A DNA stretch of 45,454 bases, counting the filler, from Sphacelaria rigidula (Eukaryota), in the NCBI GenBank assembly GCA_964200075.2. It is 2 parts of 2 records of this genome, joined end to end, with 100 filler letters (N's around TTAATTAATTAA, not from the genome) between each part and the next. Parts side by side here need not be neighbours in the genome. Positions count along the whole stretch, not along the records: positions 22,781 to 45,454 come from CAXNAA020000320.1; 1 more part is not named here. One strand, written 5' to 3'. Below the pieces are notes generated by a model. It ran no database searches and was not told where the DNA came from. It was given only the letters and a program-made list of their open reading frames with translations. This document shows positions 3,330 through 45,400 of the stretch, piece by piece. The translations under genes were made by a program, and so were the position numbers. Position 1 is the first letter of the stretch; every line of letters begins with the position of its first letter.

Positions 3330-5636
3330 TTACGCAGGGGGGGGAAACGGAGCCGAAACTGCCAGCTCCATCTTCATGCCTTCCTTTTCACCATAAAACA
3401 CCACTGAAGAAGCATCTACAGCAGCGTCTCCTGCCCGAAGGTGTTCACGAATCATGGACGGCGTCGTGCGAATCCGCTTCTTCATTCTTTCATCACAACT
3501 ACCGCTGGAGTTACTCTCAATTCTGCAACTCCCACCTTCATCAGAGGAGGTGGCCACGCCAACTCTCCTTCGCAAGCTCTGCATGGAACGCTGAAGGGGA
3601 GCACACTCTTCCACTTTCACCCTTGTGTGCGGATTTGTCCCCGAAGGTATGCCTTTGGCACCCTTGGCAGGCTGCGACGGCGCGGTACCAACACGTTCAC
3701 AACTTCCGAGCAAAACAGGCCCGAACCCGACGTCACCCCCACCACCCCTGTGACAGGTAGAATATTCGGGTTGTCTGTCCTGGGTGGAATTTTCATACAA
3801 GATGTCTGCATGTTGCCCTCGCCTGGTTAGTTGGCATACGTTACCCTGTTCGACGCCATCAACGCGATATACGAGCCGATTCGAGCAGCCCTCGTTGCCG
3901 TACCTGTTGCTCATTACATTGACCATCCCCAGCCTGGCGTGATCGGCACAGAACTCCGCCAACCGACTTCCCGCTACGCCGTACGATGGATGTTTAGAGC
4001 AGCCCTCGTTGCTGCACTTCTTGCTCGCCACATTGACCATCCCCAGCCTGGCGTGGTCGGCATAGAACTTTGCCATCCCATTTCCCGCTACACCGTGCGA
4101 TGGTTTCTTGGAGCAAACCTCGTTGCCGCACTTACTGCTCACTACATTAACCATCCCCACCCTCGCATGATCGGCACAGAACTGCGCCTTCCGACTGCCC
4201 GCTACACCGTGCGATGGTTGTTTGGAGCAACCCTCGTTGTCGCACTTCTTTCTCGCTACATTAACCATCCCCAGCCTGGCGTGGTCGGCACAGAACTGCG
4301 CCTTCCGACTACCCGCTACACCGTACGATGGTTGTTTGGAGCAACCCTCGTTGCCGCACTTCTTTCTCGCTACATTAACCATCCCCGCCCTGGCGTGATC
4401 GGCACAGAACTCCGCCCTCCGATTTCCCGCTACACCATACGACGGTTGTCTGGAGCAGCCCTCGTTGCCGCACTTTTTGCTCGCTACATTAACCATCCCC
4501 GCCCTGGCGTGATCGGCACAGAACTCCGCCTTCCGATTTCCCGCTACACCGTACGATGGTTGTTTGGAGCAGCCCTCGTTGCCGCACCTCTTGCTCACCA
4601 CATTGACCATCCCCGCCCTGGAGTGATCAACACAGAACTCCGCCCTCCGGCTTCCCGCAACACCGTACGATGGTTTCTTGGAGCAGCCCTCGTTGCCGCA
4701 CTTCCTGCTGATTACATTGACCATCCCCGACCTGGCATGGTCGGCACAGAACTCTGCCTTCCGGCTTCCCGTTACACCGTACGATGCTCGTTTGGAGCAG
4801 CCCTCTTTGCAGCACTTCTTCCTCGATACATTAACCATTCTCGCCCTGGCGTGGTCGGTATAGACCTCCGCCTCGCGGCTTCCCGCTACACCGTCCAATG
4901 GTCCTACGGGGGGGGGCTTTTTGCCACACTCCTTGCTCGCTACATTGACCATTCCCGATCCTGCGTGGTCGCCACAGAAGAGTCTTTCCCTGCTTCCCGC
5001 TACACCGTACGATGGATATTTGGAGCAGCCCTCGAAGCCGCACCTCTTGCCCACTACATTAACCATCCCTGCCCTCGCGTGATCGGGACAGAATTCCGCC
5101 TTCCGACTTCCCGCTACTCCGTGAGATCGATGTTTCGAGCAGCCCTCGTTGCCGCACTTCCTGCTCACGACATCGACCATCCCCACCCTGGCGTGGGTGG
5201 CACAGAACTCCGGCGTCCGGCTTCCCGCAACACCGTACGATGGAACTTTGGAGCAACCCTCGTTGCCGCACTTCCGGCTCACGACATTGACCATCCCAAG
5301 ACTTGCGTGGCCAACACAGAACTCCGGCTTCCGGCTTCCCGCTACACCGAACGATGGTCGTTTGGAGCAGCCCTCTTCGCCACACTTTTCACTTCTCACA
5401 TTGACCATCCCCACCCTTGCATGGTGAGCACAGAACTCCGTTTTCCGGCTTCCCGCTACACCATACGATGGTTTTTTGTAGCAGCCCTCATAGCCGCATT
5501 TCTTGCTCACAACATTGATCATCCCAGGACTTGCGTGGTCAGCACAGAATTCCGCCTTGCGGCTTCCTGCTATACCGTACGATCTTTGTTTGGAGCAGCC
5601 CTCGTTGCCGCACTGTTTGCTCCTTGGATTAGCCAT
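3330..5636 (-). CDS. EsV-1-7 cysteine-rich repeat protein (768 aa, single exon), putative multi-zinc-finger nucleic-acid-binding protein
   Basis: Uninterrupted 768-aa ORF. It has 15 full 38-aa units of consensus KKCGNEGCSKQPSYGVAGSRKAEFCADHARAGMVNVVS (C-x4-C-x16-C-x2-H) plus a partial 16th, matching the EsV-1-7 repeat family of brown algae and phaeoviruses. A non-repetitive tail of about 175 aa follows. The start codon is uncertain because a decayed unit lies upstream. Confidence 0.88.
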   Translation of the reverse strand: MANPRSKQCGNEGCSKQRSYGIAGSRKAEFCADHASPGMINVVSKKCGYEGCYKKPSYGVAGSRKTEFCAHHARVGMVNVRSEKCGEEGCSKRPSFGVAGSRKPEFCVGHASLGMVNVVSRKCGNEGCSKVPSYGVAGSRTPEFCATHARVGMVDVVSRKCGNEGCSKHRSHGVAGSRKAEFCPDHARAGMVNVVGKRCGFEGCSKYPSYGVAGSRERLFCGDHAGSGMVNVASKECGKKPPPVGPLDGVAGSREAEVYTDHARARMVNVSRKKCCKEGCSKRASYGVTGSRKAEFCADHARSGMVNVISRKCGNEGCSKKPSYGVAGSRRAEFCVDHSRAGMVNVVSKRCGNEGCSKQPSYGVAGNRKAEFCADHARAGMVNVASKKCGNEGCSRQPSYGVAGNRRAEFCADHARAGMVNVARKKCGNEGCSKQPSYGVAGSRKAQFCADHARLGMVNVARKKCDNEGCSKQPSHGVAGSRKAQFCADHARVGMVNVVSSKCGNEVCSKKPSHGVAGNGMAKFYADHARLGMVNVASKKCSNEGCSKHPSYGVAGSRLAEFCADHARLGMVNVMSNRYGNEGCSNRLVYRVDGVEQGNVCQLTRRGQHADILYENSTQDRQPEYSTCHRGGGGDVGFGPVLLGSCERVGTAPSQPAKGAKGIPSGTNPHTRVKVEECAPLQRSMQSLRRRVGVATSSDEGGSCRIESNSSGSCDERMKKRIRTTPSMIREHLRAGDAAVDASSVVFYGEKEGMKMELAVSAPFPPPA
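3855..5618 (-). repeat. Coding tandem array of 114-bp units (EsV-1-7 repeats)
   Basis: 114-bp periodicity is visible directly, e.g. recurrent cacagaactccgcc, ccgtacgatgg and ggagcagccctcgttgccgcac on the + strand. Confidence 0.95.
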
Positions 5637-5720
5637 CCCTACACCGTACGATGGTCGTTTGGCGATGTCCTCGTTAACCGCACAATTTGTTTACTTAATT
5701 GACCATCGGCACCTCCACGA
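5637..5720 (-). pseudogene. Decayed EsV-1-7 unit immediately upstream of the ORF start
   Basis: Minus strand reads MVN*VNKLCG/NEDIAKRPSYGV then GMANP. This is a repeat unit with a stop, a frameshift and an internal deletion. Confidence 0.65.
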
Positions 5721-18042: not shown

Positions 18043-18804
18043 CTCCTTTTATGCTGGCCACCAAGCAGAAATATGCATCACATGCTTCGCAAACATCGCT
18101 GTCGTGTATCCGCGGGGCAGTGCACGCCGTGTGCCATGCGTTCGTAGTGCAATTGGTTGTCATTGTGTCACAAGTCTTACGCCAACATGAAAAAAAACAA
18201 ATTATCGGAACAGAAACTGACCTCTTTTCGGCCCCTTGCGTGCTGCTGCAAGCCGCAAGCCCAGATTCAGCAATGTGGCTTGTTTTGTGTGCTACTTCAC
18301 GTGACATGTGGGTGAAGTTTCAGCGCGATGCAGCGCCGACAGCGAATGTACGGTCGTATCTGCCAAACTGAGTATGTCTACAGGCGATGTGTATCCGAGA
18401 TTTCTTCAAATGGTCATTATCCACAGGGTATGGCAGCACGAGTCGAGGCAGTTTGCAAGCCAATCAGCCACTCGAAACCAGGCGCATCATCGCTGGCTGG
18501 CGCCTGTGCCATACCCAGTACCTCTGTACCTCTGTGTCCTCTGTATTGTACGCTGTATGTTTTGTGTTTGGTTGTAGAGATCATGCTCTACAATCAAAAT
18601 AGCCGGTAACGATTTTTATGCTACAGGTGTATGCCGCTAAACGGGGGATTATGCTAGCTCAGCCCTGATTATGCTGGCATTATGCTCGTACGCTAATTTG
18701 GGCGAAACAGACCAATTATGATAAAAATCTTGCCCGCACAAAGGACTCAGGCCTAGAGAAAACTACCCAAATTTGGTGATTCTCTGCACGTTGACATCTG
18801 TGAG

Positions 18805-22680: not shown

Positions 22681-22780
22681 NNNNNNNNNNNNNNNNNNNN
22701 NNNNNNNNNNNNNNNNNNNNNNNNTTAATTAATTAANNNNNNNNNNNNNNNNNNNNNNNNNNNNNNNNNNNNNNNNNNNN
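22681..22780. other. Artificial scaffold gap/linker
   Basis: 44 N + TTAATTAATTAA + 44 N = exactly 100 bp. The 12-mer is a self-complementary all-frame stop linker. Confidence 0.95.
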
Positions 22781-26669: not shown

Positions 26670-27175
26670 TTGTAGATCACATCGAGAAGTGCTGCGACGA
26701 AGATGTTGAACAGCAACGGGGACGACCACCCTTGCCTGAGTTCTGGCAGGCGTGACACTACTCTGATAATTCGCCGTCATCCACCTGTATCCAATCTTGC
26801 ATGTCGTCTCGAAAGGTACACGTGACCTTGATAATCCGCGGCGGAGTCCGACACTAACCCTAACCCTACCCTTAAAACCCTAACCCTAACCCTAACCCTA
26901 ATCCTAACCCTAAGAAATACTTCCCGCAACGGCGTGCAGTCTACGGAGCCTTCGACCTTCGGCTGGTCAATGAAGCGCGGTTTCAGTGGGGTATTCCTCG
27001 CCCATCCCAACTTTTGCTGTCGGCGTAGTGCAAACATCATGTCGATGGTCGATTGTTTCGCCGCAAATCCAACCTGTTCTTGCGGGGGAAAATCCATGCT
27101 TCCTCGCAGAAGTACCGATTCTCCCAGCTACAGTTTTGAGAAGTTTTCCCACCTGCGCTACCAAAAGAACGAACG
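26670..27175 (-). mobile_element. RTE-like LINE reverse transcriptase relic
   Basis: LLVAQVGKLLK...QEQVGFAAKQSTIDMMFALRR...FIDQPK..GSVD...PPRIIKV..FRDDMQ...LRQGWSSPLLFNIF. Confidence 0.85.
26854..26913. repeat. Interstitial telomeric tract (CCCTAA)n inside the LINE relic
   Basis: About 10 hexamers, mostly perfect CCCTAA. Confidence 0.9.
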
Positions 27176-28618: not shown

Positions 28619-31600
28619 AAATATTTCGGGCATGTAGTTGCCTGTGGGCAGCATGTAGATGGAAAGCTGGTGAACCTAGCTTTGTAGCAACATCTACGGC
28701 CTAATACCTGCCCAACTAGGCATCGCTGGTCTAAATATGTATTGGTTATACATGGTTTAAAACTTCTCAGGTAGAACTCCGGCCAAAGAGTCCCACCCGT
28801 CTGGTCAAAATCACCAGCTAAGGTGCTGGACTCTGCAGATTTGAATGCACGCAGTTTGGTCTCCCGCAAAGGATGGTGTCAATGATGCTTGCACCCGAGG
28901 CGACACAGTTGGCCGACCGCATGCGACTATCAGCAGCGTAGAACACATGAAGAAAACAACTTCACGTCAACGTCCTGCCACGGAAGTCCGGGTGAATGAA
29001 CCCGTTGCATACTTCCCGTACCAACGCAACACAGCATAAAGACTAGAGCTCTGACGTAGGGCGCAAATACCTCGGCATAAGGCACGCCATGCATCTGACC
29101 TGTTCGAACAATTTACGACCGGAATATCAAAATATACAAATGGTTCGAATGTACACCACACCCCCCCGGGAGTCCGAGATGTCACACTTGTAGCTCTCGA
29201 CGTACCCCACCCCTAGCTCCACTCTACTTCTATACGAGCAAGCTATAACGCATGCACTCCCCCTGACCCAGTCCCCCTGACCAGAACGTCTCAGCATCCA
29301 CACTTCGTGGTGAAGTTCGGCCGGCGTTCGTACGATATTACTGTAAGTAAGGAAGAGGCACAGGCCTTGACGTCACAGACGCTGTGCTGGGGATATAAAA
29401 GCGATGCTCGCTTGCATATTTGGTACGCATAGCAGGAGAAAATTAGCTCGCCAAGCGGTGAGCATTTTAAAGCAGCTTTACGACCTCCTTCAATGCTAAA
29501 AAAAAGTGGAGATTGAGAAGTGAATCGCTTGCTTGGAGGAGGCCAAAATCGTATTCCTCGGGCGCCATAGACCCCCCCTCCACCCTGCCCCCCCCCCAAT
29601 CTTTGAGGGAAAATAGCGGGTATACCTGTGGCCTTTCCCGCAAACAAGTGTGCTGCGGTTTCGGCCTACACTTTGTTCAGGAAGCGAACAGTTTGCCCAT
29701 TGAACCCGTGAGCGTTAAGGTATACCTAGATGTGAGGTTAACCCTCGAAAGAATCCCCAAAATTAAGGAGGCACAGAAAAATCGAGAAGTTGCTGGAGGA
29801 CGAGAAGAGTAAGCAGTCACGGACAAGTATTGTACGGACACCATGGGCCTGATAACCCAAAACATGCAGGAGATACGTCGGAGAAGGTAGAGGTGGAACA
29901 CATTTTCTCATTTTACTGGTGGTCGGCGAAAACCGCTATCTCGACAAACCTCCTCCCGTCGAATAACGTATGAACATACCCTCAAAAGCGGGGATGATGT
30001 GGATACTACTCACGAGAGAAATATCTCGAGCGTCATTACAGACCAATCACCTTTTCATAGGAGGCAAGTAAGCACCAGGGTAGAGACGGCTTTATTCCTT
30101 GGGATTAGGTAATCATCCCGGGAAGGGGAGGTGGTGACAGGGTCACAAAAACATCGAAAGCGACATTTTCCCTTCAATCATCACTCGCACGATAAGGAGT
30201 ATGGTTCGCAGTGACTGCTGTCGGCACGAGTGTCCCAGGTTTCCTAACGTGTGGCACGAACCCACCGTTATGCCTCCCTTCGGGGAAGTCGAGCAGTGGG
30301 TCCCGAGAAGTTTTCATCGTCGGAGTCGTGGCCGTACACTGGCTCGAAACACGGTGAGGCATGGTGTGGTTGGCTGCACGGTGGGGCTGCCCTTTCACTA
30401 AGATGGCAGTACAATGGACCTCTCAGTCATGGATGAGCACTCGCTATATTGACAATTATATATACTTTGGGGCCAACTTGGCCTACAGATGAAGATCGCT
30501 CTGTTACCGTCAATATGCGTTTGAGTTTCGTTTTTGTTGGGTACGTCTATCAAGAGACCACGGCTGAACCCCGGGGGGATCACTTAAAGTACGACAATCA
30601 AAATCAAATAATCAATCATGCGTGAAAACTCGTCAACGTACACATATGGTTGCGTCTTGAAACCGACACCGGGGCTGTTTATCTTATATTCCAACAGTCT
30701 GCAATGCTCGTGAATTTGCTATACTTTATCCGTGTTCATGGCTCTCAGCAAAATGGTTGCAGGTTTGTTTGTGTTGTGGTCATCGGACGAAACGAAAATG
30801 ATCAACCATTTCACGAATCAAATGATCATGTTCCACAGGTTAAACGGAACACACTATTTCGCGTACCGATCTGTAGCGGCTGCCGGGGTCGTGTTCCGTA
30901 CGCCATAGATTACAATGTGGCCATGGTCAATATACTCAAGAAGATACCGCACCGAAATATTTACGCACTGTTGCCATAGACTTGATCAGTCCACCGTACA
31001 GTACATGATAGTACACTCTTGCATTTCATGTCCAGTGCATACATTGTTTTGCACCCACAAAGCTCACACTCATACGGTGAGTGGTGACCGTAATACAGTC
31101 GTTGTCTCCGACAATGCTTAGCGGATCAGTCGACCACTCGGTCAATCAATACAAAGCCTCCACTCCGCTATTTGAACCCGTCACTCAGTCCGTCGGCAGA
31201 ACGACTGACCGGTGGGTAGTAATGCAAACATACACTCAAGGGGCGCCTTGTGCTCGCTGGGGCAGAGTGGCACAGGCTACTCTGAAAGGGGTGATCACCA
31301 CTGATACTCTGGAACAGGACCTGCACGCGTACAATGACCAGAGCTTGATGTTCCAAATCGTACGACAGGGCCAAATTCACTGGCGGGGTCAGGGACAGGC
31401 CTGCCGCCTCACGTGTGTCGCTCGGCACTACTAACCGTTTTTTCAACTTCCCGGCGTGAAGGGGGGACGGGAATGCTTTTTGAGGGCTGCATGCTTCGCT
31501 CCTATTTGCAAACTTATTGCATGATGAAATCGCTAAACGTCGACCTAGGTTTTTCTCCTCGTGGTTCACGACTGCACATGGTGGTCGTCGGCAACGAGGC

Positions 31601-32263: not shown

Positions 32264-32382
32264 GTGGAATCGGAAGGTGACTTTGAGGCGGCGACCAAGG
32301 ATATAGCCTCTTTGGTGTACCTTTGCAAACCGGAGGAGGGTTGCCTTCCTGACAAAGACTGGGAGACATCATCTTCACACAA
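32264..32382 (+). CDS. Exon: N-terminal DUF442-like domain ([26 protein letters not shown]...)
   Basis: Acceptor cttag, donor gtgaga. Its phase 2 end matches the next exon. SLVYLC.PEE resembles the S(V/I)INLR..E strand of DUF442/PTP-like folds. Confidence 0.7.
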
Positions 32383-35300
32383 GTGAGAGTTTCGAGAAAT
32401 AAAAAATGCTCAACGAAGGTGTAGCTGAACGACAACTGCCCAGTAAGTTTAAGATTTACTAACATCTACCGTGCGCACAGCGTTGGGTACTGCTGCGGTT
32501 CACAATGGACCAGACTTGCACTTTACCGCGGAGGTGTTCCACCGTGTAGCCACTCACACGCCGCGCTTGTCGTGCGTAGCGACACGACGCGACTCGCGCC
32601 ATTCGTACTCACTTACGGTGCTCTTCGTTTGCTCGCACACGGGGTAATTATGTCGACGAAGTCGCTAAGATAAGAAAGGTGCTTGATCACCTGCAGTTCA
32701 ACGCCTGCAACCGCCCAGCCCAGCTGCATTATCGTCGAATGAGATTGTGAACCTATTGTGTTTAATGACGCGGGCATGGTGGCGCTCACGTGCGCTCACG
32801 TACCATACCGTGTGATCCCCGCTCCGTATAGGGGGTGGCGTTGCCTCACCGAGGTGTTGTGACATTTCATAGCACAATGAAGACATGCGTACTCGCTTTA
32901 CTGTGGAAGCTCATCGTACGAATACTGCGTTGAACTATAGGTACGACAAAAGGCTAATATACAATGTACTTCCCGGCGTATGTATGCAAATGCAATGTTC
33001 AGGCAACGACTCGACCTCGCCCTTGGTCCCGGTCTGTTTGAGGTACGATCGGGCCTCAAAGCCGTGGAAGAGATGAACAAGATGGCGAAGCCAATTCTCT
33101 TCATGTGCAAGAGCGCAAACAGAGCAGGTAGGTATTCACAGTAGACGCAGTCGGCATCGTGAAAGGAGGAGACACCCTCACCCGCCGACTTGAACATTTG
33201 ATGGTGAATGCCGACTTCGCCGTAGTGTTGTCCATCAGAAGCCAAAAGTGAATAAAAATGGCCCTTCTTTTTATCACACTTTTAACCCCTCTCCTTCCTC
33301 GGGTTGAGGCCGTCGTCTCAAGGGATTAACCCATCTCTCCCCCGTATACGCCGTACATTCGAATCTCGTGGGTTGAATCATGACTATCAGCATTCCCGCA
33401 CCGCGTCAACCCTCGTCGAACAAACTCCGTCAACTACTCCTGTTTATTCACGTGCGCACGCTTTAGACGGTGGAAATCAATTTCTTCGAAGAAAACCTCA
33501 ACGCGCCGGGAATCGAACCAATGTTCTCTCCAGCATAATGGTGACAGTCGGACCATGAGAGCAGTATGGACAACAAAATTGAAAACATTGAGTACCAATC
33601 GCCCTTAGATTATTGAGGTTCGAATAAAGAGTATCATGCATTTAGTGTTCCCTTTACTCGGTTAATTTTATCTCTTCTCGACCTCGTTCCCCTTCCTCGA
33701 GCTTCCTCAGAGAGTTTTCCCTTTTTCTACCACCTGGTGTATGTCTACCTTTCGACCAGTGCTGGACCCCGGGGATCGTTTGACGCGCAATGATCGAATA
33801 TAAAAGAGCAATACTGAATGGGAAGTATTGACTACATAGGCAGCCATGACCACGCATTTGAAAATATTCTGTCGCTTTGCGTCAGTCGAACGTTTCGTCA
33901 GGACTGTGTTGGTCTGTACTCTTTTGAGTAGAATTTGACATTTGCCCTTTGACCCTTTGGCCGCGAGCATAGGTGATCTATTAATTCAGCATGAAGTTCA
34001 CTTGCAAAATTGATGCATGATCAGATGATCTCTTCTCGCGGTCAAAGGGTTATTTCCTTAATAATCTTCATTTTTTTTTTTTTCTCCGGTAGGGTAGGGT
34101 ACGGTACGGTACGGTACGGTACGGCACGGTACTGCATGCGTATATGGCGCACTGCTTTCAAACCCGTTGTGCTTGAATTTCATCTGTAATTTAGCGTCTC
34201 ATAACGCATTCAAAACCATTAGAATCATCCATGAACGGTGGGCGCCCCCAGAATGGCACTCATAATGGAAATTCAAAATATGTCGACTTTGGTGGGCTGT
34301 TCCTTTTTGAAGAATAGCACGGTGAGAAACAAGACGAACCGCGGCCAACTACCAGTTGGTCTGCATAGCGCGTATAGAGAAATCAATGACCACCACGCTG
34401 CCCTGGCCAAGCACTGCCTTCGCTGGAGCGGCTTTATCCACCGTTCCCAGTCAGTATGGGTAGCAACGTCTAGCTTCAGCCAACATGAGTTGCGCACGCT
34501 AGCGGTGGCAGTTGTGGCTAGCGAGTACTGCATTATTCTATCTCCAAGAATGACTCCAAAGTGCTCTGTGCTATGGCTCTGGTGCTAGTGCATTGTGCTG
34601 TATGTACGGCAGTGTTCGTAGTCAACCTCCCATAGAGTGTCTTGGACGACCTCCACTTCGTTCCTCACGCACCCAGTACGTACAGTACAAAACTTGGATG
34701 CACGCGTGACGGATGTAGTCCTCCTCATAAGATTTCCAACCGTGCGCAGGAGATCAGACGTTATGTTTGCCGCTTGTTGTATTTCGCATGCACGTTGTGG
34801 GTTGGATCTTGCGAAGGAGATTGTGTTGTGATAATGTCTACAATAAGGTCATATCTGTGCGGTCACCTGTTATCTCAAAATAGCGGCAGGCCGAGGATAG
34901 GTTGTGGTACCCATAGGCTCGTGCCGTGTTGGTTTTCCTTCTTGATGCACCGTGCCGTACCGCACAGCATGTGTACACAGCTTGCTGCGTTTCCCGTAAC
35001 CCAGTTCCTTACATACTTCGAGAAAAAACATGCCGTACAAACGTGCTTTCACGCGTACGACACACCGTACCTACTGAACATGACACTCACATACGCTGAC
35101 CCGCATGAAGGCGGCATATGTTTTGCACGCATCCCACAGACCATCCTTCCGCTACCGCTCTTATTATGGATATGTTAGTGCGTAACGGGTGGTATCCACT
35201 GTATGTGTACAGCATCCAGTATTTCCCCCTTTGCCGGCTTGATGGGGTCACCACGACCAACCCGTGGCATTGTCAGCCATGGCTCGAGTTGATATCGAAG

Positions 35301-38300
35301 AAGATGATTCCTTTTTTCAAGTTCCGTTTTGGAAAAGGGATTGCCCCCACAACGTCCAATTTGCGTGTTCTCGAGAAACAGATTGTTTCCAGCTCGACGT
35401 CCAGATGTGCATACCGGATCACACAAGTTTTAGAAATTCGTCGGTTCTTGAAGTGGTCGTTAGTCCAACATCTCTGTATTACCACAGAAAAGACGCAACA
35501 AGGCTACACGAAACCTACCCACCGAACCCCGAAGGAACACGCACAGTCACCCTCTACTCACGCGCGTAAGGTGCAGCGCAAGTCGTTGCCGATCTCCACG
35601 CGGCAATGCCTGCTTGACGAAAATTCATTCTGTATTATTGGATGAAAGGCGGTCGCGTGCGTGTGACATTTCAATCAAAAACGTGCCATTTTCGGCCGTT
35701 TGTGAGCGTGTACTTGCGTCTCACAAGTAATGGTTTCTCATGGAGTTCGCGAGAAATTTGAGGAAGGTCAAGCACAATGTGCAGAGCTATTTAGCAGCTA
35801 CGGCGTGGCCTGTGTTTTCGGTTTGCAGGGGCAGTGCGTTTTTCAGGCTCTTCTCTGGTTGCGTTGTGTTGTGTGAACCTTTGCATGTGCCCCTGTCAAT
35901 GGGACATCCATGTTCTCGCTGGAGATGTTCACAATTGTCCTAATCATTCTTGTAGCGACTGCAGGAGGTGTTTTTTCACGCCCTGAGACCGGTTCTCACG
36001 GTTGGTTTAAGGGGCGGGGGGCGTACTTAATCACTTGTGGGACATCTGACATGTTTTTTTTGCCGCTGACAACCATTGTGTTTCTCCCCAAAATAAGAAA
36101 ATTGATCTTTCGACTGAACTGGATAATAAATCTGCCCTCACACATCATATGCCGGGAGAAGTAACAACGGTCAGAAACTGCTCGAGAACTTGTCTAAGAA
36201 AGAAGTCAAACTCGCCGTCTAGAGCAGTCACGCAGTGATCCTGTTCGCCCCGATAGCAAATATACTTCTTTTGTCGGGTTCTCTTGGACCGCGGCCCGTT
36301 GGACTCCGTTGGGATCTATACAACAGCTGCAGGTCAATACCGTGTGAGAAACCATCGTAGGTCTATATTGTTGTGCCGCGAGGTAGCAGCCAGCTAGACA
36401 TCCCTATGGGGTCTCGTTTGTGTGCGGGGGATTCTCGAGGCCGCGGAAAGATACGGTGGAAATTTTCTAGGTCCTGTCATATTCTGCCGTGCGGTGGCGT
36501 CGAGGATGAGGTTTGACCGGCGGAGTGCGCTCGACAGTGGGCATATTATTAGGCAAAAAGCGGGTCGAGAAATAGGAAAACAGGGGGGCGGGACGGAAAT
36601 AGTAGATGGCGCTTGGTCGTTCCACCCCAACCTCGGACGACAGGTGGGCTCCTCCGCAGATCTTTCTGCCCGCGGCACTGTTTGGCCCATAGGCGCGCCC
36701 GAAAGTTCGTGAAAGTTGGTTCCTGTGCTTTGGTTAGGCCGTGGTGGACTTGCCTTCTCGTCAGGGTTGGATTTAGATCGATTTCAGAGAAGCACGGACA
36801 GACCCCGTACCTGCCTTTTGCCGCTACCCCGTTTTGGCTGGGGTGGGTCGACCCACTGTTCTCTTTTACTCTTTTTTATTGCGCGAGTTGTCACAAAATG
36901 AAATCTGTCGCATGCCCGTTGTGGCGAATGAATATTGCACGGTTTCGGGAATTCGATGTACCAATACAAGGATTTTTGATGCGATGACGCCACTCTGCGT
37001 TCGCTGCAGCTCACGATGACATCGCCGGTTGGTATTTGGTTTACAGCGACCTTATACGAATATACAGGTGCCATGGCAGCTGTGTTTCATGGGAGCCGCT
37101 CTGGCTGGAACGCTAAACAAACTTTGGAATGGGCTCAACCACTAGGCCTCAAGTTCCTGTCGTCTGCCCCTATGGTGGACTGGGTTTCTGCTTGCGTGCA
37201 GTCTCGGAAACCGAAAGGGGATTTGATATTCAGGTATGAGGGTTGTCTATTTCCTCGATGGTCATTCGGATCATTGATGTTAACCCTCAGACAGTGACCG
37301 TCGCTTCGGAACAGTTCCACAGGCTGACAGTCCAGGGACATCCAAGGGTTTCCAGGGGACAGGGGGTGATTTTTGACAGCGGGGGGTGGGGGCCTGTTAG
37401 CAGAACAGCCGAAAAGCTCACCATGTCAACCATGTGTGTTTGGATTTTTCGCACGGGAAATTGGTAGATGATACACGACCGAGACCCGAGAGGAGTGGAG
37501 AGATCATTTTTGATCGATCACGGCTATTAGAAAGGTTCACGTTGTTCCCCTACGGATGGACTACTGTACTACAGGTGAACTCCTTCGCTGTCTAGCCGTA
37601 TTTATCATTTTGGTCATAACAACCCAACCATAGATGCCATGGACATAAAGAACGCTCACGCGGCCATTTGGCTACCCCCGAAATTCCCCCAGGTGGGTAA
37701 AGTTTTCGAGACTCCAGAGGAATTAAACGCCTCCGGAGGGGTGAGCGGCCCTCCAGAGGAGATTTTTTGATTACCTCCAGAGGGAGTGAACGCTTACGGC
37801 GGCTTGTTTTTGCTTCTGGAGGGCCGCGCATTGGTCTAAATTCCTCCGGAGGGGTTTGCGGCCCTCCAGGCCGGTCATGTTTGGTTTTCTCCAGAGGGGT
37901 TGAAGGCCTCCGGAGGCTTGTTTTGCCTCTGGAGGGCCGCGCATCTCTCCGGAGGCATTTTGGGGCGTAGCCAAATGGCCGCGTGTGCGTGCTTTTTGCT
38001 CTGCTCGTGGTCTATGTCGTCTGCCTGATGCGACTCCTCATGTTTTGCCAGCGAAGCTTTCACACTGTGCAGTGTTGTTGAGAAACACTGAGCTCATCGG
38101 TAAATGTGTGCATGTGTCGAAAAAAGACTTTGGTTTATCTCAACATTCAAGTCACGCCTGCTCACATCTATGCGTATTGCTGGTCACCGTACGATGATCA
38201 TCAACCCCAATACGTATAGTGTACCGGAGAGACCTCGTAGCACAACGGCTGCCCGGCATGTAGAGCGCGTCCCGCCGTAGCAACAGCAGACGTCACTTAC

Positions 38301-41300
38301 AGGCATCCCCCACTTGCCTGCTAGTATGGATTCACAGCCTTCGAGCTCCCGTCATCTCGTTTCTCCTTGTGATGCGATGGCCATGAACCCGTGACGCGCC
38401 AGGCAGTTGTTCGAGAAGGAGTCGTCGACGTTCACGTACATCCTTGGAGATTCGGAGACCAAAGAGGCACGTTTATCATGCCGTATTTATGCTCTTGATA
38501 CTGCTGTGCAGACATACGAGTGACTACGTGACAGAAAAACTTGGTAATACTGTGCAGGCGTACTACTGTAACTTTTTAAAAGCTCGATCATGGATTCTGC
38601 TCAGAGCTTTAGTCCGCTGACTGTCCCGCGAGGTTTTAGGGGATTTTTCTGAAGGTGTAGATGGATACCAAAAGGACACGGGTGCTTGACAGAAGTGATG
38701 TAGAAGAAAGTGTATCCCATAGGCGTGCAACAGCTTTTTGTCATGGTTGAGAGAGGCGGGTGCACTTTTTTTGCTCTTGAGGATTATTCAGCTGTGAATA
38801 CTGCCGGATTCAGCAGCGCTGGGGCGATAGATACCCCCGCCACACATTTGATAGCCATCACGGCTATTTCCCACATATTAAACGATGGAGACCCGAGTGA
38901 TATCAACAAGCTGTTGCTTGTGGTGTTCCTCTGCCGCCTTTTCAACAGGCCATCCTAATTGACCCCGTGGATGTCACCGCCGAGCGTGACGCGGAGATGG
39001 TGGCGCAGATGGGTCTCGAGCTGAAGATGGCGCTCAACACGCACGTACATGCCGACCATGTGACTGGAACAGGAAAGCTCAAGACCATCGTGCCTGGCAC
39101 CAAGAGCGTTCTGTCAGAGGCGTCTGGGGGACGGGCGGATGTCAAGATTTCGGACGGAGACACTATTGTTTTCGGCTCGAGGTAAGGTTGGCATCGGTGG
39201 AACTTGGCGTTTTGATCTGCGTGCTTCGTCTTCCAGATAATGGAAAGAACTTTGAACAGCAGCAGTGTTCTTGCCTTGCTTCCTTTGCGCTCGTGAGTGA
39301 GAGCTCATGCCTACTAGCGTGGTTCCGACATAGCTGAGCCGCAATCTACTTCCACGGCTTCTGGGTTCGTTTTGTTCATGGGCATATCTGCGTCTTTGTT
39401 TCGCACACGTTTTTTTTTCCCCTGAGGCTATGCTCCGGAGCCCCGCCATTTCTAGGATAATTTCGTTATTCCCATTGGTACCTTTTTTTCGTTGTCGTTT
39501 TCGTTTTCGTTTTTTCCTGCTTTGTTATTTTTGCTCTGACGTTGTTTCCTCCCCATTTGTCTTCATCGAGTGTTTCTGATCCGTTTATCTTCGGTACGTC
39601 TATCTTGTGACCGCGGCTGGGTCCCTCGGGGGATAAGTTCACGTGCGACGACCAATCAATCAATCAATCGATCAATCAATCAATCGATCAATCGTGTATC
39701 GTATTGAGGCCTACCACGCCATTATGGTACGGGTTCGTGCTGCGGTTGCGACGCCTTTTAGTAGTTGAATAAGTGACGGAATGCGCCGGACTTTCGATCT
39801 CAACCGCCCGAGCTATTTTCGGATTTAATAGTCGGACGTTGGTGTACTGGTGTTGATATCATTATCCATTACTCTGACAAACCATGTAAACGCTTTTGCA
39901 GCGAATGCATCGGAACAGATACTGAGACGACAGCCATCGTGATCTGCATACCAAAGTTGTCCTCCATTCCAGTTTCTACTTGTTCTGGACACTCGTACGA
40001 GTTCGACCGCTTACGTGGTCACTCTTTAATGTTCACAACAGTTTTCTAATCACCCAATGCTCAAAGTTTCGACCGCGCTCTGAGTATAGGCCTCCTTGCA
40101 CATACACGCTTGGGCAGGTTCGTTGAGGCACGCACCACTCCTGGGCATACCGCCGGCTGCATGACATTTGTGCTGGATGACAAGAGCGCTTGCTTTACCG
40201 GAGATACGCTGCTCATTCGTGGATGCGGCAGAACTGATTTCCAGGTGTGGTTCCAAAGTCCATCGGCTTTTATGAGCGACCTGGCCAAATATTCCTAGAA
40301 TAGTTTGAGTGCGGGAGTCGTGTCCTCCTAGTAGTTCTGGGTTTGTGACCTGTTCAACGGTTAATGGTTCCTCTCCATTCTCTGATGAATGTCGTGCGTG
40401 TTGCCGACGCTTGCTGTGTTCTCAACGGTGAGGAGTGGTCGAATCTACTGTACGCCCAGGCACGTTTTGCGAAGAATACGTAACGTACGTGACTCGTGGT
40501 AACGTACATGACTCGTGTGTTCAACGGCCGATCATGTCTGTGGTGCAGAGGTGGGGGTTGCACAATATCCACCACATGCCGCCATTGCGTACGTTTGGGG
40601 ACTGTCGTCCGGTAGTCGCTGTGTTTGCTGGTGACCGAGTGTGTTTTGAAGACGAAAATGCTCGTGATGGCCCTCCGGATCGCGTTATTTCTACACAGCT
40701 AGCTCTCTAGATCCACCTCGGTGCCTTCGCTCACAGGCAGTGTTCCTCCTCTCACGAACCCAACATATCTGTGTGCTCGCACGATAGCTAAGCCCACGAC
40801 CAGGAAAACACTGATGAACGCCGCGGCGAAGGGCGCCGCACGTAGTGTCGAATGATTACCTTCGTTATTTGAACAACGTTCATGCTCACTGCAATGGGGG
40901 TACAGACGTGAAGTATAAAATAGTGCGTTGGGCAAATCGGCAACACCGTTCACTGGGATTATCTCATGGCAGGCCCCGGCACACGGGACGGGTTGCTGGC
41001 TTGACACGTTGCAGCTTTACTTGTCCTCAATCTCGCCTTGTTGGTCCTGCATCGTGCGACGTGTCGCTTCCCTCAGGGCGGCTCCAGCGAAACCCTCTAC
41101 GAGTCGGTGCACAGCAAGATTTTCACACTTCCGAACGACTGCAAAGTCTACCCCGCCCACGATTACAAGGTCGGTACCCTTGCTAATTTACTGGTTGTAG
41201 CGACTTTTAGGTAAGATGGCCGTGGCCTTTGTTAACGTCGATCATTTCGTGGTGGGAAGAACACAGCATGCTATTGTTGTTGAAATGCACCCAAACAAGA

Positions 41301-42128
41301 GATTCATGTAGCTTCACACGGGAAGGCGCACGTGCGATCATGCGATGTGATGATGGGAAGATGTCGTAGTTCACGTTGTTGGCACCAGCTTTAACATTTT
41401 GGTATCCTGTAATGGCTACTCCACCATTGCTCATACCAGCAACGATTGTGACCAATTTCCCCTTCACCCTAAACACACCAAGACTTTGTGAGTTGTCCGC
41501 ATTTCAGTGTTATCGCCTGGAAGTGTACGCCATGCGATTATCAATCCATTTTCGTAGACTATGTCTACGGTACTATAGGGTGTGTGAGGTCCACGCGTAC
41601 GTATTAAGATGCCTTCTTACGTGTGGACCGGCAGCTATCTTTGTCCGGGAGTAGTGATCTCGTCATGTTACCCAGCGTTTTTCGACAGCATATACTAGAT
41701 CTGGAGTGTTGGGCCACTAACTTTACTCGAGTGCTGTCCTCGGCCAAACGTTTCTGCCGCGCGACTATTTTATGCCGACATATTTGTACAAGCGTTGAGT
41801 TAGTCAGATGAAGTCGCCGTGTGCTGCTGTAATGACTCATTGCTGTTATCACTTCATTTTATTGTTGTGAACTGTCGACGGCACAAGGGAACCCTTTGAA
41901 GGGAAATATACTCAGTGACTTATTTCACCTGCTATCATTTGTCGGACGTTTGCCTCGCAGGGGCGGCACAACAGCACCGTGGGAGAGGAGAAAGCATACA
42001 ACTCCCGCCTCACGAAGTCAGTCGAAGAGTTTTGCGGAATCATGGGGGATCTTAGCCTGCCCTACCCCAAGATGATGGACAAGGCTGTACCGGCAAACAT
42101 GGCGTGCGGCTTTTGTGACGACCTGTGA
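32264..42128 (+). CDS. ETHE1: DUF442/Blh-like sulfurtransferase fused to ETHE1-type persulfide dioxygenase; 8 identified exons, 5' exon(s) not located
   Basis: Exons 32264-32382, 33003-33127, 37068-37233, 38403-38466, 38949-39181, 40118-40244, 41077-41169 and 41961-42128 splice in phase to 364 aa plus stop. MBL/ETHE1 motifs present: [75 protein letters not shown]. Confidence 0.9.
33003..33127 (+). CDS. Exon: DUF442-like active-site loop ([14 protein letters not shown])
   Basis: Acceptor gttcag, donor gtaggt. Contains a P-x4-C-x-S-x2-R (Cx4R) motif. Phases fit both neighbours. Confidence 0.82.
33290..33530 (-). mobile_element. SINE-like repeat, family B copy 2 (intronic)
   Basis: Homologous to 120-330. 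The minus strand carries box B GGTTCGATTCCC at about 33508-33519. Confidence 0.55.
34088..34132. repeat. (GGTAG)/(GGTAC)n pentanucleotide microsatellite
   Basis: Seen directly. Confidence 0.85.
37068..37233 (+). CDS. ETHE1: Exon: end of DUF442-like domain, linker and start of ETHE1 domain (...KPKGDLIFR)
   Basis: Acceptor tacag, donor gtatga. Ends with LIFR, which joins QLFE of the next exon. Confidence 0.88.
37320..38052. mobile_element. Dispersed repeat, family G copy 2 (intronic, interrupted by a MITE)
   Basis: Homology to 24502-24885 stops at about 37656 and resumes after 37985. Confidence 0.75.
37657..37985. mobile_element. MITE with 19-bp perfect TIR and CTCC(A/G)GAGG internal repeats
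   Basis: CACGCGGCCATTTGGCTAC / GTAGCCAAATGGCCGCGTG. Absent from the paralogous family G copy. Confidence 0.85.
38403..38466 (+). CDS. ETHE1: ETHE1 exon ([21 protein letters not shown]), GC donor
   Basis: Acceptor gccag. The only nearby in-phase donor is GAG|gcacgt. Confidence 0.9.
38949..39181 (+). CDS. ETHE1: ETHE1 exon with THxHxDH metal-binding motif
   Basis: AILIDPVD...[14 protein letters not shown]...VFGSR; caacag / gtaagg boundaries. Confidence 0.95.
39653..39693. repeat. (CAAT/CGAT)n microsatellite
   Basis: Seen directly. Confidence 0.9.
40118..40244 (+). CDS. ETHE1: ETHE1 exon ([18 protein letters not shown])
   Basis: Canonical motifs; ggcag / gtgtgg boundaries. Confidence 0.95.
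41077..41169 (+). CDS. ETHE1: ETHE1 exon ([19 protein letters not shown]...YPAHDYK)
   Basis: cctcag / gtcggt boundaries, phase 0-0. Confidence 0.95.
41961..42128 (+). CDS. ETHE1: ETHE1 terminal exon ([11 protein letters not shown]...[14 protein letters not shown])
   Basis: cgcag acceptor; ends in TGA. Confidence 0.93.
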
Positions 42129-43004
42129 TCTACTAGAGGGTAGTGCCGTGAACTTGATATTACGATTCGGTTAGGTTCTTCCACCTCTAAGTGTATTGAA
42201 CTTCAGGTTTTCATAGACGAAAAGGATACTGGTGATTCTGATGGTGCCCAGCTGGGAGTTGAATTTGATTGCTGCCCCAAATTGTAAATACAGCGATTCT
42301 TTCTGATACCCATGTAACGATTGTTTCTATCCTTGTCCTTCTACGTTATGGAATGGGCAGTGCTGTGGTTGTTTCCTCTCTGTGGAATCACTCCCTCTAC
42401 GAACATGCGAGACAATCGGTTCACATACGTTGGGTTCACGTAGCTAGAGGACGCTAGAGTGATACGCACATCCTCAGCAGCAGTTCTTCGTCGATTGACC
42501 GGTGCACTTATTATCGCAATTTGACTGGTCCTTTTTGAATCCAGCCATGGTCACAATAATACACATGTACCCGAGGTAGATCAACAGAGGCACTTGTTCA
42601 AGGGACCTTGATCTCGAGAAAAGGGTAGAAACGCAAGATGAAGGAGAAAAATTACCGCACAACCTGACGTGAACGTCAAGCTATGAACTTACCACGATCC
42701 CAGGGAACCTAGGCAAGTCCTGGCAGGGCTTCAGATGAGAAGCCTTGAGATGTCGAAAAGCAAGCCGTGGAGGCAGGTAGCGACTCGCCTATCTGAAGAC
42801 CGGTATTGAGGGGCCTGCATATTCGTGCAAACTCCATTTGTCATCTCATGCAGTATCTGTCCTATTGTAAAACGGTGATTTCTTGACTCGTCCATTCTAT
42901 GTGGTGGTTCCCACATCACTCCCCCCCTCTCGTGAACCTCCTGGAGGTTTTTTGTGAGAAACCTTTTACGCCGGCTAGCGGTTGAAATGTTGCCTTTTAA
43001 TTGA

Positions 43005-43405
43005 ATTTTTCATTGGGGATGAGAACGCGGATAATTGAAATCTTCGTATCCACACCAAATCTTCGTAATATGGTTCCATTTCTTCATCTGCTGGTAGCTA
43101 TTGGAAGCTACTGCACACTATACAAATTTTGATTTCGATAACCCAAATGTTGGGGGCCTAGGTGAAAAACCAGTTTTGGGGTCCGATCGGATCACCAAAT
43201 TTTCCCAAAATGGGTTTTTCCCCTAGGACCTCAACATTTCGGTTATCAAAACCAAAATTTGCATGGCGTGTAGGTTTTGTCAATAGCCACCAGCAAGTGA
43301 AGAATGGAACCACATTTCGAATATTTGGTGTGGATACGAGGATTTTGATTCTCCGGGTTGCTCTCATTCTCAATAAAAAACCATCCCCAATTTGTAAAAT
43401 CCCCA
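43005..43405. mobile_element. Fold-back MITE, family F copy 3
   Basis: Same arms and centre (gtccgatcggatcacc) as copy 1 in reverse orientation; left terminus eroded. Confidence 0.8.
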
Positions 43406-44399: not shown

Positions 44400-45400
44400 T
44401 GTTGTGAGGTTGATGCCTGCCCTGGGCAGCTTGTTCACAATGAGTAAAGTACAAGTTGATTATGGGAAACAAAACGAGTGATCGTCGAAGGGATCAACCA
44501 ATCTCATCCGCAGCCTCGAGAACCACACACCAAGCCAATGTCCCGCGGGTTATCCTCTCTTTCGCTCGGGGTAGCGTTCCTTCCTACTGAAACTTCATAA
44601 GAAACGTATCTGACTACAATACTTCAATAATCCGAAACACATCCTACAATACTCCGAAAGACATGTGCAGATGCAGAACTGACCAACAAACTAATACCCT
44701 CCCTTGGGCATCTGCTACATCAACAAGTAGTCTTCTTTGATCAACTCTCAGAACTCTTGGCGAATATATCTTGCTTTATGCAACACCCAACAAACATTTT
44801 CGGTGTCGAGTAAAACCCCGACGAGGTAACGCTTTGGTCAAAATATCAGCGTGTTGCTCGTCACCCCGTTCATGATCCAACGTTATCCTCGATTTGTCCA
44901 CCAACTCCCTAGGAAAATGATGACGAAGATATATGTGCTTACTGTTTGACGAGCTTAATGGATTTTCAGCTAAAGCAATCGTACCCTCGTTGTCTTCCAA
45001 TGCCCTAATGGCCTCTGCTTTCCTATTGGGTAAGAGAAAATCCACAATTCCGTCTACAAACAGAGCTTCTTTCACACCATCCCCCATACTCTGCTTCCGT
45101 GGTCGAAAGTGTAACACTTTTCTGCATCCTAGAGTACCATGCTACTGGTTGTAATGCGTGAGAGGACCGCGTGCTTAGAGGACCGCGTCGTAGTTCAAAA
45201 TACCTCAGGATCGGCGTTTTTTAAAACCAATCGGGTCCCTCCCTGCAGGTACCACGCCCCCGACCCTAACCCCGACCCTAACCCTAACCCTAACCCTAAC
45301 CCTTACCATAGGGGTGTTCAAATCCCAATGCGGTCCTCTAAGCACGCGGTCCTCTCACGCATTACACTGGTGATCTATCACACAAAACTGCACCAAACAA
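44400..45400 (-). mobile_element. Ty1/copia LTR retrotransposon 3' end: RNase H, PPT and probable 3' LTR
   Basis: GAVLCDRSPVAWYSRMQKSVTLSTTEAEY/GDGVKEALF...EDNEGTIALAENP...SKHI..RHHF.RE...QHADILTKAL, with stop at 44776. Polypurine tract AAGGGAGGG (about 44697-44705) is followed by TATTAG; a possible LTR end ...ACAACA lies at 44400. Confidence 0.85.
45150..45366. mobile_element. Young MITE (TGT...ACA termini, Ginger-like) carrying telomeric repeats
   Basis: Perfect 37-bp TIRs (45150-45186, 45330-45366), perfect 5-bp TSD CTGGT and an internal (CCCTAA)n tract at about 45260-45305. Excision restores the copia frame S-P-V-A-W. Confidence 0.92.

Follow-up and report, generated by a model that had tools for sequence, protein, structure and literature searches.

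We report that a gene of the brown alga Sphacelaria rigidula joins, in one spliced reading frame, an N-terminal domain of the DUF442 type to ETHE1, the eukaryotic persulfide dioxygenase. Eight of its nine coding exons lie in a 45,454-nucleotide stretch of assembly GCA_964200075.2, called here the window, in which two parts are joined by 100 filler letters; the gene is on the second part (CAXNAA020000320.1, or C320), and window features are on the plus strand unless stated otherwise. A sequence-only reading of this stretch had proposed that three upstream exons splice in phase onto ETHE1, and this is what assembled RNA-type contigs contain. By analogy with bacterial Blh, we think it likely that the 380-residue product is a single two-domain enzyme in which a sulfurtransferase is coupled to a persulfide dioxygenase (PDO), disposing of sulfane sulfur. 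Published work is cited by PubMed Central (PMC) number.

The Upstream Exons and ETHE1 Form One Gene

Eight exons in the window join into 364 codons and a stop codon, without an internal stop, and the introns that follow the first three of these exons have phases 2, 1 and 2. The three upstream exons (32264-32382, 33003-33127 and 37068-37233) have AG and GT ends and lead in phase onto five ETHE1 exons; AVPANMACG and the other signature motifs checked were all found in the joined frame. Every intron within the window is GT-AG except that at 38467-38948, which is GC-AG and is matched by RNA-type contigs.

We compared eight sequencing runs with the stretch. Four share 8-9% of its words, which is about the exon share, and junctions were checked in three of these (X1, X2 and X3, all from one study) and in one of the other four (X5, a genomic run). 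The RNA label of X1-X3 is the tool's guess, none of the runs being recorded as RNA, but their contigs leave out precisely the predicted introns. A single 1477-nt contig from X1 spans all seven window junctions, including the three (32382/33003, 33127/37068 and 37233/38403) that connect the upstream exons to each other and to ETHE1, and a 1754-nt contig from X2 does the same. X3 contains six of the seven, in three pieces, the missing one being 33127/37068. In X5, the introns are covered and none of the seven junctions is present. The joined gene, upstream exons included, is real, and the RNA-type contigs together with full-length homologues rule out an artefact of chance splice sites.

Transcripts do not begin at or after 37068. 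The contigs extend 195-211 nt 5′ of 32262, in letters that have no placement in the window; the last of these gave no match when a first exon was sought inside it. They match the genome once, on contig C466, where a 16-codon first exon (18637-18684, residues 1-16) ends at a GT donor. Between exon 1 and the end of C466 there are 2.4 kb, and exon 2 follows 9.5 kb of C320, which gives intron 1 a minimum length of 11.9 kb; the scaffold join between C319 and C320 must be either wrong or inside that intron. At this join (22681-22780), C319 is placed upstream of C320, which is probably a mis-join, or else the first intron swallows C319. The complete protein has 380 amino acids and is 81% identical to P0001, the homologue on which our fold models were made, and 73-77% identical to those of named brown algae. 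In a search of the genome for a second ETHE1 locus only C320 matched, a count that is a lower bound. Downstream of the stop codon, a 3′ untranslated stretch runs from 42129 to 42590, RNA-type contigs from three runs reaching 42278, 42297 and 42590.

The C-Terminal Domain Is of the Type I ETHE1 Kind

By sequence and fold, the C-terminal domain is a eukaryotic type I persulfide dioxygenase (ETHE1) in which the mono-iron site is complete. In sequence searches, P0001 matched human ETHE1 with an E value of 1e-89, the Arabidopsis enzyme with 7e-87 and the Burkholderia phytofirmans PRF protein with 3e-75, and SdoA with just 1e-18; its model matched the human structure 4chl with a Foldseek template-modelling (TM) score of 0.97. 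The signatures that the sequence-only reading had recognised as ETHE1-type are complete, as regards both the iron ligands and the substrate residues. Exon 5 (38403-38466), which ends at the GC donor, is followed by exon 6 (38949-39181), with THVHADH and the codon for His206 (39042-39044), equivalent to the human iron ligand His79. Exon 7 (40118-40244) supplies the other His/Asp ligands, His262 and Asp281, and the motif RGCGRTDFQ, with Cys288 and Arg290; exon 8 (41077-41169) contributes HDY, with Tyr324; and exon 9 (41961-42128) carries Arg341, Cys374 and the stop codon. These five substrate residues correspond to human Cys161, Arg163, Tyr197, Arg214 and Cys247, in the active-site numbering of PMC4383860. 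We infer by analogy that this domain would oxidize glutathione persulfide (GSSH) to sulfite in an O2-dependent reaction.

Compared with the human (4CHL) and Arabidopsis (2GCU) enzymes, the algal domain has the same fold (TM 0.92-0.97), 58-59% identity and equivalents of all the named active-site residues (H79, H135, D154, C161, R163, Y197, R214 and C247). Those enzymes, however, are single-domain and mitochondrial, whereas here a catalytic-looking domain of 146 residues comes first and no presequence was seen. The protein ends with ETHE1: no classical rhodanese fold (PF00581) follows, nor was one found in the brown-algal homologues scanned.

The N-Terminal Domain Has a Cx4R Loop and Belongs to the DUF442 Lineage

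We assign residues 1-146 to a domain with the protein tyrosine phosphatase (PTP) fold, of the DUF442 (Rhd442) lineage, with Cys91 and Arg96 at its putative active site. The sequence-only reading had put this part at a minimum of about 130 residues; the domain is there, and its size becomes about 146 with exon 1, which is outside the window. Exon 2 (32264-32382) encodes residues 17-56, including the SLVYLC strand, and exon 3 (33003-33127) the part with the active-site loop. Exon 4 (37068-37233) encodes the last helices of the domain and, after a linker of about four residues, the first part of ETHE1 (LIF); the two domains therefore meet within an exon and not at an intron.

The loop, Cys91-Lys-Ser-Ala-Asn-Arg96 (33106-33123), is the predicted persulfide-carrying site, as judged by sequence and conservation. 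Among 101 aligned relatives Cys91 is invariant and Arg96 is present in at least 90%, and 117 of 118 fused relatives retain a Cx4R loop, with the consensus C[KRS][ST]xxR as compared with CRTGTR of known DUF442 proteins. Being Cx4R, CKSANR is not the Cx5R P-loop of classical PTPs and dual-specificity phosphatases (DSPs). In the DUF442 protein of C. pinatubonensis, Cys94 and Arg99 of CRTGTR are needed for rhodanese activity, which proceeds with a kcat of 4.89/s with cyanide (PMC8533005), and Hyphomicrobium Rhd442 is also active (PMC11094781). For function we give the loop more weight than the fold because its Cx4R spacing equals that of the rhodanese-active CRTGTR; thiosulfate sulfurtransferase activity through Cys91 would follow by analogy.

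Profile and fold comparisons agree on a PTP-like, DUF442-type domain. A profile built from 12 N-terminal parts matched 439 cluster representatives at E<=0.001. Among the best 150 of these, 47 continue into a dioxygenase, while fragments make up many of the rest; 78 of the 150 were scanned, of which 16 pass the cut-off of PF04273 (DUF442) and nine more match below it, whereas none passes that of DSPc. Aligned by hhalign with the N-domain of Agrobacterium Blh, the profile gave a probability of 76.5% and an E value of 2e-5. AlphaFold modelled whole P0001 with a predicted local distance difference test score (pLDDT) of 92.7 and a predicted TM score of 0.84, which may indicate that the two domains pack against each other in a definite way; the N-domain modelled separately (pLDDT 90.8) has a Cys-phosphatase fold. 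Foldseek ranked Tk-PTP first for this domain, followed by the DUF442-type structures 3gxh, 2f46 and 3gxg (ranks 2, 3 and 7). VIA-align also put Tk-PTP at the top (Z 16.7), with 3gxg at rank 7 (Z 14.9, root-mean-square deviation 2.5 over 135 residues) and NMA1982 at rank 40.

Several results count against this assignment. A Pfam scan of the exon pieces and 12 homologues named no family for the N-domain, with PF04273 matched in none of the 12; the best TIGR01244 score in 12 fused proteins was 17.2 bits against a cut-off of 85.85; and the leads from an Atlas feature search were all under 0.9. The fold models were made on P0001, 81% identical to the window protein, and not on that protein itself. 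They leave function undecided, as the top matches are true Cx5R phosphatases, and phosphatase activity has been measured for NMA1982, itself a Cx4R protein (PMC10716126). Matches of the profile to sequences in the Protein Data Bank were weak (TpbA, E 0.24). By its sequence, then, the N-domain is a divergent subfamily that lies under both the PF04273 and the TIGR01244 cut-offs.

Could the domain be a regulatory Cx4R phosphatase of the NMA1982 kind? Its fold is that of PTPs and DSPs, with phosphatases as the top structural matches; several of the 78 scanned proteins also pass the cut-offs of PTP-NADK or Y_phosphatase3; and NMA1982 dephosphorylates 6,8-difluoro-4-methylumbelliferyl phosphate (DiFMUP) by means of C95 and R100. 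The rate of that reaction, however, is 4.4e-5/s (kcat; PMC10716126), five orders below the rhodanese kcat of DUF442. The column of its general-acid residue, Asp71, holds Leu here and Asp in just four of 117 eukaryotic rows (five within one column, the loop alignment being approximate), and the other fusion partners of the N-domain family mostly handle sulfur or thiols. We regard a phosphatase as very improbable.

A Proposed Coupling of Sulfurtransferase and Dioxygenase

As a sulfurtransferase, the N-domain would take sulfur from thiosulfate or polysulfide onto Cys91 as a persulfide, with Arg96 binding the donor, and would pass it to glutathione (GSH), giving GSSH. The ETHE1 domain would then oxidize GSSH with O2 to sulfite, releasing GSH. 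The fusion would keep both steps together, and diffusing GSSH would suffice to couple them. Blh offers the precedent: its two activities are coupled, and its domains, when purified separately, also couple by way of free GSSH (PMC5823870). Direct channelling of persulfide from one domain to the other, as the sequence-only reading had suggested, may also occur.

The N-domain might instead act mainly as a sulfane-sulfur buffer or PDO activator, or make thiosulfate from GSSH and sulfite, rather than feed thiosulfate in; among readings of the mechanism this is the chief competitor. A standalone DUF442 protein raises PDO activity several-fold and speeds the conversion of GSSH and sulfite to thiosulfate, and a DUF442 domain fused to sulfide:quinone oxidoreductase (SQR) modulates its partner (PMC9163753). 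Transfer from thiosulfate to GSH by DUF442 is slow, with a kcat of 0.078/s as against 4.89/s with cyanide (PMC8533005). On the other hand, Blh (PMC5823870) and the triple fusions with YeeE described below point to thiosulfate uptake and use, and one bacterial SQR query, a weak test, was not matched in the alga. Such a role for the domain is possible but, in our judgement, unlikely, and we retain thiosulfate-fed coupling as the preferred function.

The partners of the N-domain family suggest an involvement in sulfur metabolism, most of them having sequences of sulfur- or thiol-handling proteins. The family is fused to YeeE/YedE in P0298; in P0396, which represents a six-member cluster, and in P0419 it is part of a YeeE-DUF442-ETHE1 triple fusion; and a class-V pyridoxal phosphate (PLP) enzyme (P0226) and a redoxin (P0261) are further partners, with F-box and methyltransferase domains occurring once each. 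The class-V PLP partner resembles a molybdenum cofactor sulfurase. YeeE/YedE lies downstream of blh in all five bacterial loci that we read.

Some related observations may be noted here. P0284, like P0298, P0396 and P0419, has a YeeE/YedE thiosulfate-transporter-like domain in one polypeptide with a DUF442-type domain and ETHE1, which may be compared with the bacterial blh-bigR-yeeE operon. The alga's own genome has a separate YeeE/YedE-like (PF04143) exon at C3507:9299-9421. In P0226, P0261, P0153, P0154 and P0177 the N-domain family is fused to a class-V PLP enzyme or a redoxin, or stands in tandem repeats. Exon-by-exon searches of the algal genome for PF04273, NF040641, PF00581 and bacterial SQR gave no match; the method is insensitive, having missed this gene's own N-domain, and absence is not implied.

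The Fusion Is Widespread among Algae and Protists

With a full-length profile, 118 of the 120 best matches carry both domains, and no match is named as a prokaryote. Named carriers include the brown algae Ectocarpus, Pylaiella, Ascophyllum, Laminaria, Choristocarpus and Discosporangium, as well as Tribonema, Nannochloropsis (with two paralogues), Mallomonas, Ochromonas, Ostreococcus, Bathycoccus, Myrmecia and Colponema. The fusion thus occurs in brown algae, xanthophytes, eustigmatophytes, chrysophytes, prasinophytes, a trebouxiophyte and Colponema; named matches from animals, land plants, red algae and cryptophytes are short forms. Marine algae, the setting that the sequence-only reading had in view, are just part of its range.

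It had also been expected that annotation would easily miss the upstream exons. Truncated gene models do exist, in Ostreococcus lucimarinus (258 amino acids), Choristocarpus (304) and Discosporangium (305), but the Ectocarpus siliculosus model CBN77410.1 (390 amino acids) is full-length and has the fused form. What standard annotation misses is the domain call.

Two other gene arrangements were seen. P0082, among the eukaryotic tree rows, is an ETHE1 with a C-terminal classical rhodanese, possibly a fusion of a second type in eukaryotes. P0004 and P0005, from two brown-algal gene sets, have a PCI-domain protein joined to the DUF442-ETHE1 fusion, probably by the merging of neighbouring genes; a PCI gene was sought on C466 and in the window, and none was found there.

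The Fusion Was Probably Assembled Separately from Blh

The sequence-only reading had left the origin between independent assembly and ancient transfer. Of these, separate assembly on a eukaryotic ETHE1 fits better, and transfer of a blh gene less well: most likely, to judge from sequence comparison, the fusion is old and arose when a standalone DUF442-type gene was joined to the ETHE1 that the eukaryote already had. We favor independent assembly because of identity, motifs and the bacterial survey; the tree tests give no formal rejection of a link to Blh.

The dioxygenase is 26-29% identical to those of five annotated Blh proteins, all five of which have SGTARADFP where RGCGRTDFQ is found here, whereas a bacterial type I enzyme that has GCGRTDFQ shares 51.5% identity with it. 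The Blh equivalog NF040641 scored 80-122 bits in all 12 fused proteins scanned, far from its cut-off of 625. We also surveyed the best 80 of at least 575 bacterial type I relatives: none has an in-frame N-terminal DUF442 domain, and 73 have a C-terminal extension of more than 70 amino acids, in which a rhodanese-like loop was found in 65 of 74 motif-complete frames.

In a mixture-model tree made quickly from 71 dioxygenase domains, each of the 52 eukaryotic rows stands on one side of a branch (Shimodaira-Hasegawa-like approximate likelihood ratio test, SH-aLRT, 90; unstarred). Bacterial type I enzymes and Blh lie apart from the eukaryotic rows, Blh on a branch of about four changes per site. 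The N-domain tree had 55 rows, after removal of one without a readable loop, its DUF442 rows having been selected by our own profile. Here the fused N-domains group with some unfused relatives (SH-aLRT 90), adjoin standalone DUF442 proteins and are separated from the Blh and SQR types (99). Standalone DUF442 proteins, not Blh, are thus the closest relatives of the N-domain.

Two results weigh against separate assembly. In approximately unbiased (AU) tests under LG+G4, nothing was rejected, whether the constraint was fused forms with Blh (p=0.070), fused forms alone (p=0.109), single-domain eukaryotes (p=0.217) or all eukaryotes (p=0.376); the first value supersedes p=0.036 from a rougher, under-optimised run. 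In addition, two bacterial rows fall among eukaryotes in the free LG+G4 tree. The gene might alternatively descend from a transferred bacterial two-domain gene, either blh or an unsampled bacterial fusion of DUF442 with a type I PDO. The domain order is that of Blh, the constraint joining the two is not rejected, and the bacterial survey covers the best 80 of at least 575 relatives. Set against these points are the low dioxygenase identity to Blh and its different motif, the long Blh branch, the lack of any N-terminal DUF442 domain and the prevalence of C-terminal extensions in those 80 loci, and the affinity of the N-domain with standalone DUF442 proteins. We consider such a transfer quite unlikely.

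Separate assembly need not mean a single event: the fusion might have arisen several times in eukaryotes, or have passed between algae by endosymbiotic or lateral transfer, instead of being inherited from one event with later losses. In the dioxygenase tree, the fused forms of ETHE1 are intermixed with single-domain ones, requiring six changes of the fused label on a backbone that is mostly open; the distribution is patchy; and unfused N-domain relatives sit among the fused ones. Yet the starred branches force just one change, one fused clade is not rejected (p=0.109), the N-domains of all fused forms share one group (SH-aLRT 90), their domain order being constant and their linker short, and some of the "unfused" rows may be fragments. 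Several origins or later spread are a possibility that we take seriously, while leaning against it. More tentatively still in its scope, and with similar doubt, one may suppose that the fusion is the ancestral ETHE1 of much of eukaryotic diversity (stramenopiles, alveolates and green algae as a minimum, with an origin that may be older still), and that land plants and perhaps animals lost the N-domain. Algae and protists would then oxidize thiosulfate with a third, PTP-fold class of sulfurtransferase that has gone unrecognised in eukaryotes, in some cases within a one-polypeptide transporter-transferase-dioxygenase.

Location of the Protein

The ATG is preceded, at 9 nt, by an in-frame TAA stop, and the 165 nt upstream contain no other ATG. 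If the untranslated region (UTR) is unspliced, the RNA ends that reach farthest (211 letters, in two runs) coincide with a TCAGT element, a candidate initiator motif; contig ends are weak evidence. No presequence was predicted for this transcript, though an alternative first exon may exist. As inferred from the transcript, the algal protein is likely to be cytosolic; a point against this is that the 5′ UTR is read from RNA to 30 letters.

Among relatives, mitochondrial-type presequences, judged by eye, are present in one Tribonema isoform and in chrysophyte-like, Ostreococcus and one of the Ectocarpus entries, and another Tribonema isoform lacks the extension. In the roughly 200 nt upstream of 18637 on C466, 65 in-frame codons precede the stop that lies before the ATG. 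They lack Asp, Glu and Met and encode many Ser, Arg and His residues, which may be the remnant of a presequence or may just reflect base composition. P0375, one of the two fused paralogues of Nannochloropsis gaditana, has a signal-peptide-like start followed by an ASAF-like site, suggesting plastid targeting.

Relation to Known Fusions

Blh (Xylella fastidiosa and Agrobacterium; NF040641; PMC5823870) resembles the algal protein in that a Cx4R domain of the DUF442 type precedes a persulfide dioxygenase, in its link to YeeE/YedE and, probably, in the coupled reaction. It differs in that the dioxygenase here is the type I ETHE1, the N-domain is nearer to standalone DUF442 than to that of Blh, and the gene is nuclear and spliced, without a BigR operon. 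PRF of Burkholderia phytofirmans (5VE3) likewise combines a type I dioxygenase with a sulfurtransferase, which uses thiosulfate to form GSSH (PMC9163753), but in PRF, as in S. aureus CstB, the sulfurtransferase is a C-terminal classical rhodanese fold, whereas here it would be an N-terminal PTP fold. With the DUF442/Rhd442 proteins (the C. pinatubonensis SQR domain, Hyphomicrobium Rhd442 and NMA1982) the N-domain shares its fold, Cx4R loop and profile linkage, differing from them as a divergent eukaryotic subfamily below the curated cut-offs. The algal gene would work like Blh and PRF but, by the tests run, appears to belong to neither class.

We found no description of a eukaryotic DUF442-ETHE1 fusion in the literature searched, which left out most subscription journals; the proteins are already in public databases, without the domain call. 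The eukaryotic sulfide-oxidation pathway has been drawn from animals and land plants, whose ETHE1 needs separate rhodaneses. In many algae and protists, among them seaweeds and abundant picophytoplankton, ETHE1 comes instead with a built-in candidate sulfurtransferase, whose family, in the papers found, has been characterised from bacteria only. This would be a third, apparently independent, fusion of a sulfurtransferase with a persulfide dioxygenase, its chemistry already known from Blh and PRF. The finding flags truncated gene models and names a candidate enzyme for thiosulfate and persulfide handling in algae.

Other Features of the Window

High-copy repeats, at 40-2000 times single-copy depth in run X5, occupy introns and flanks of the gene at 29536-30769, 33238-33854, 36940-38173 and 42493-43100. 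On the minus strand, broken frames at 44776-45220 resemble, by their motifs, the RNase H end of a Ty1/copia retrotransposon. CCCTAA runs occur at about 26855-26910 and near 45300, and a degenerate tandem array with a unit of about 135 bases, judged by eye, extends over approximately 3870-5650.

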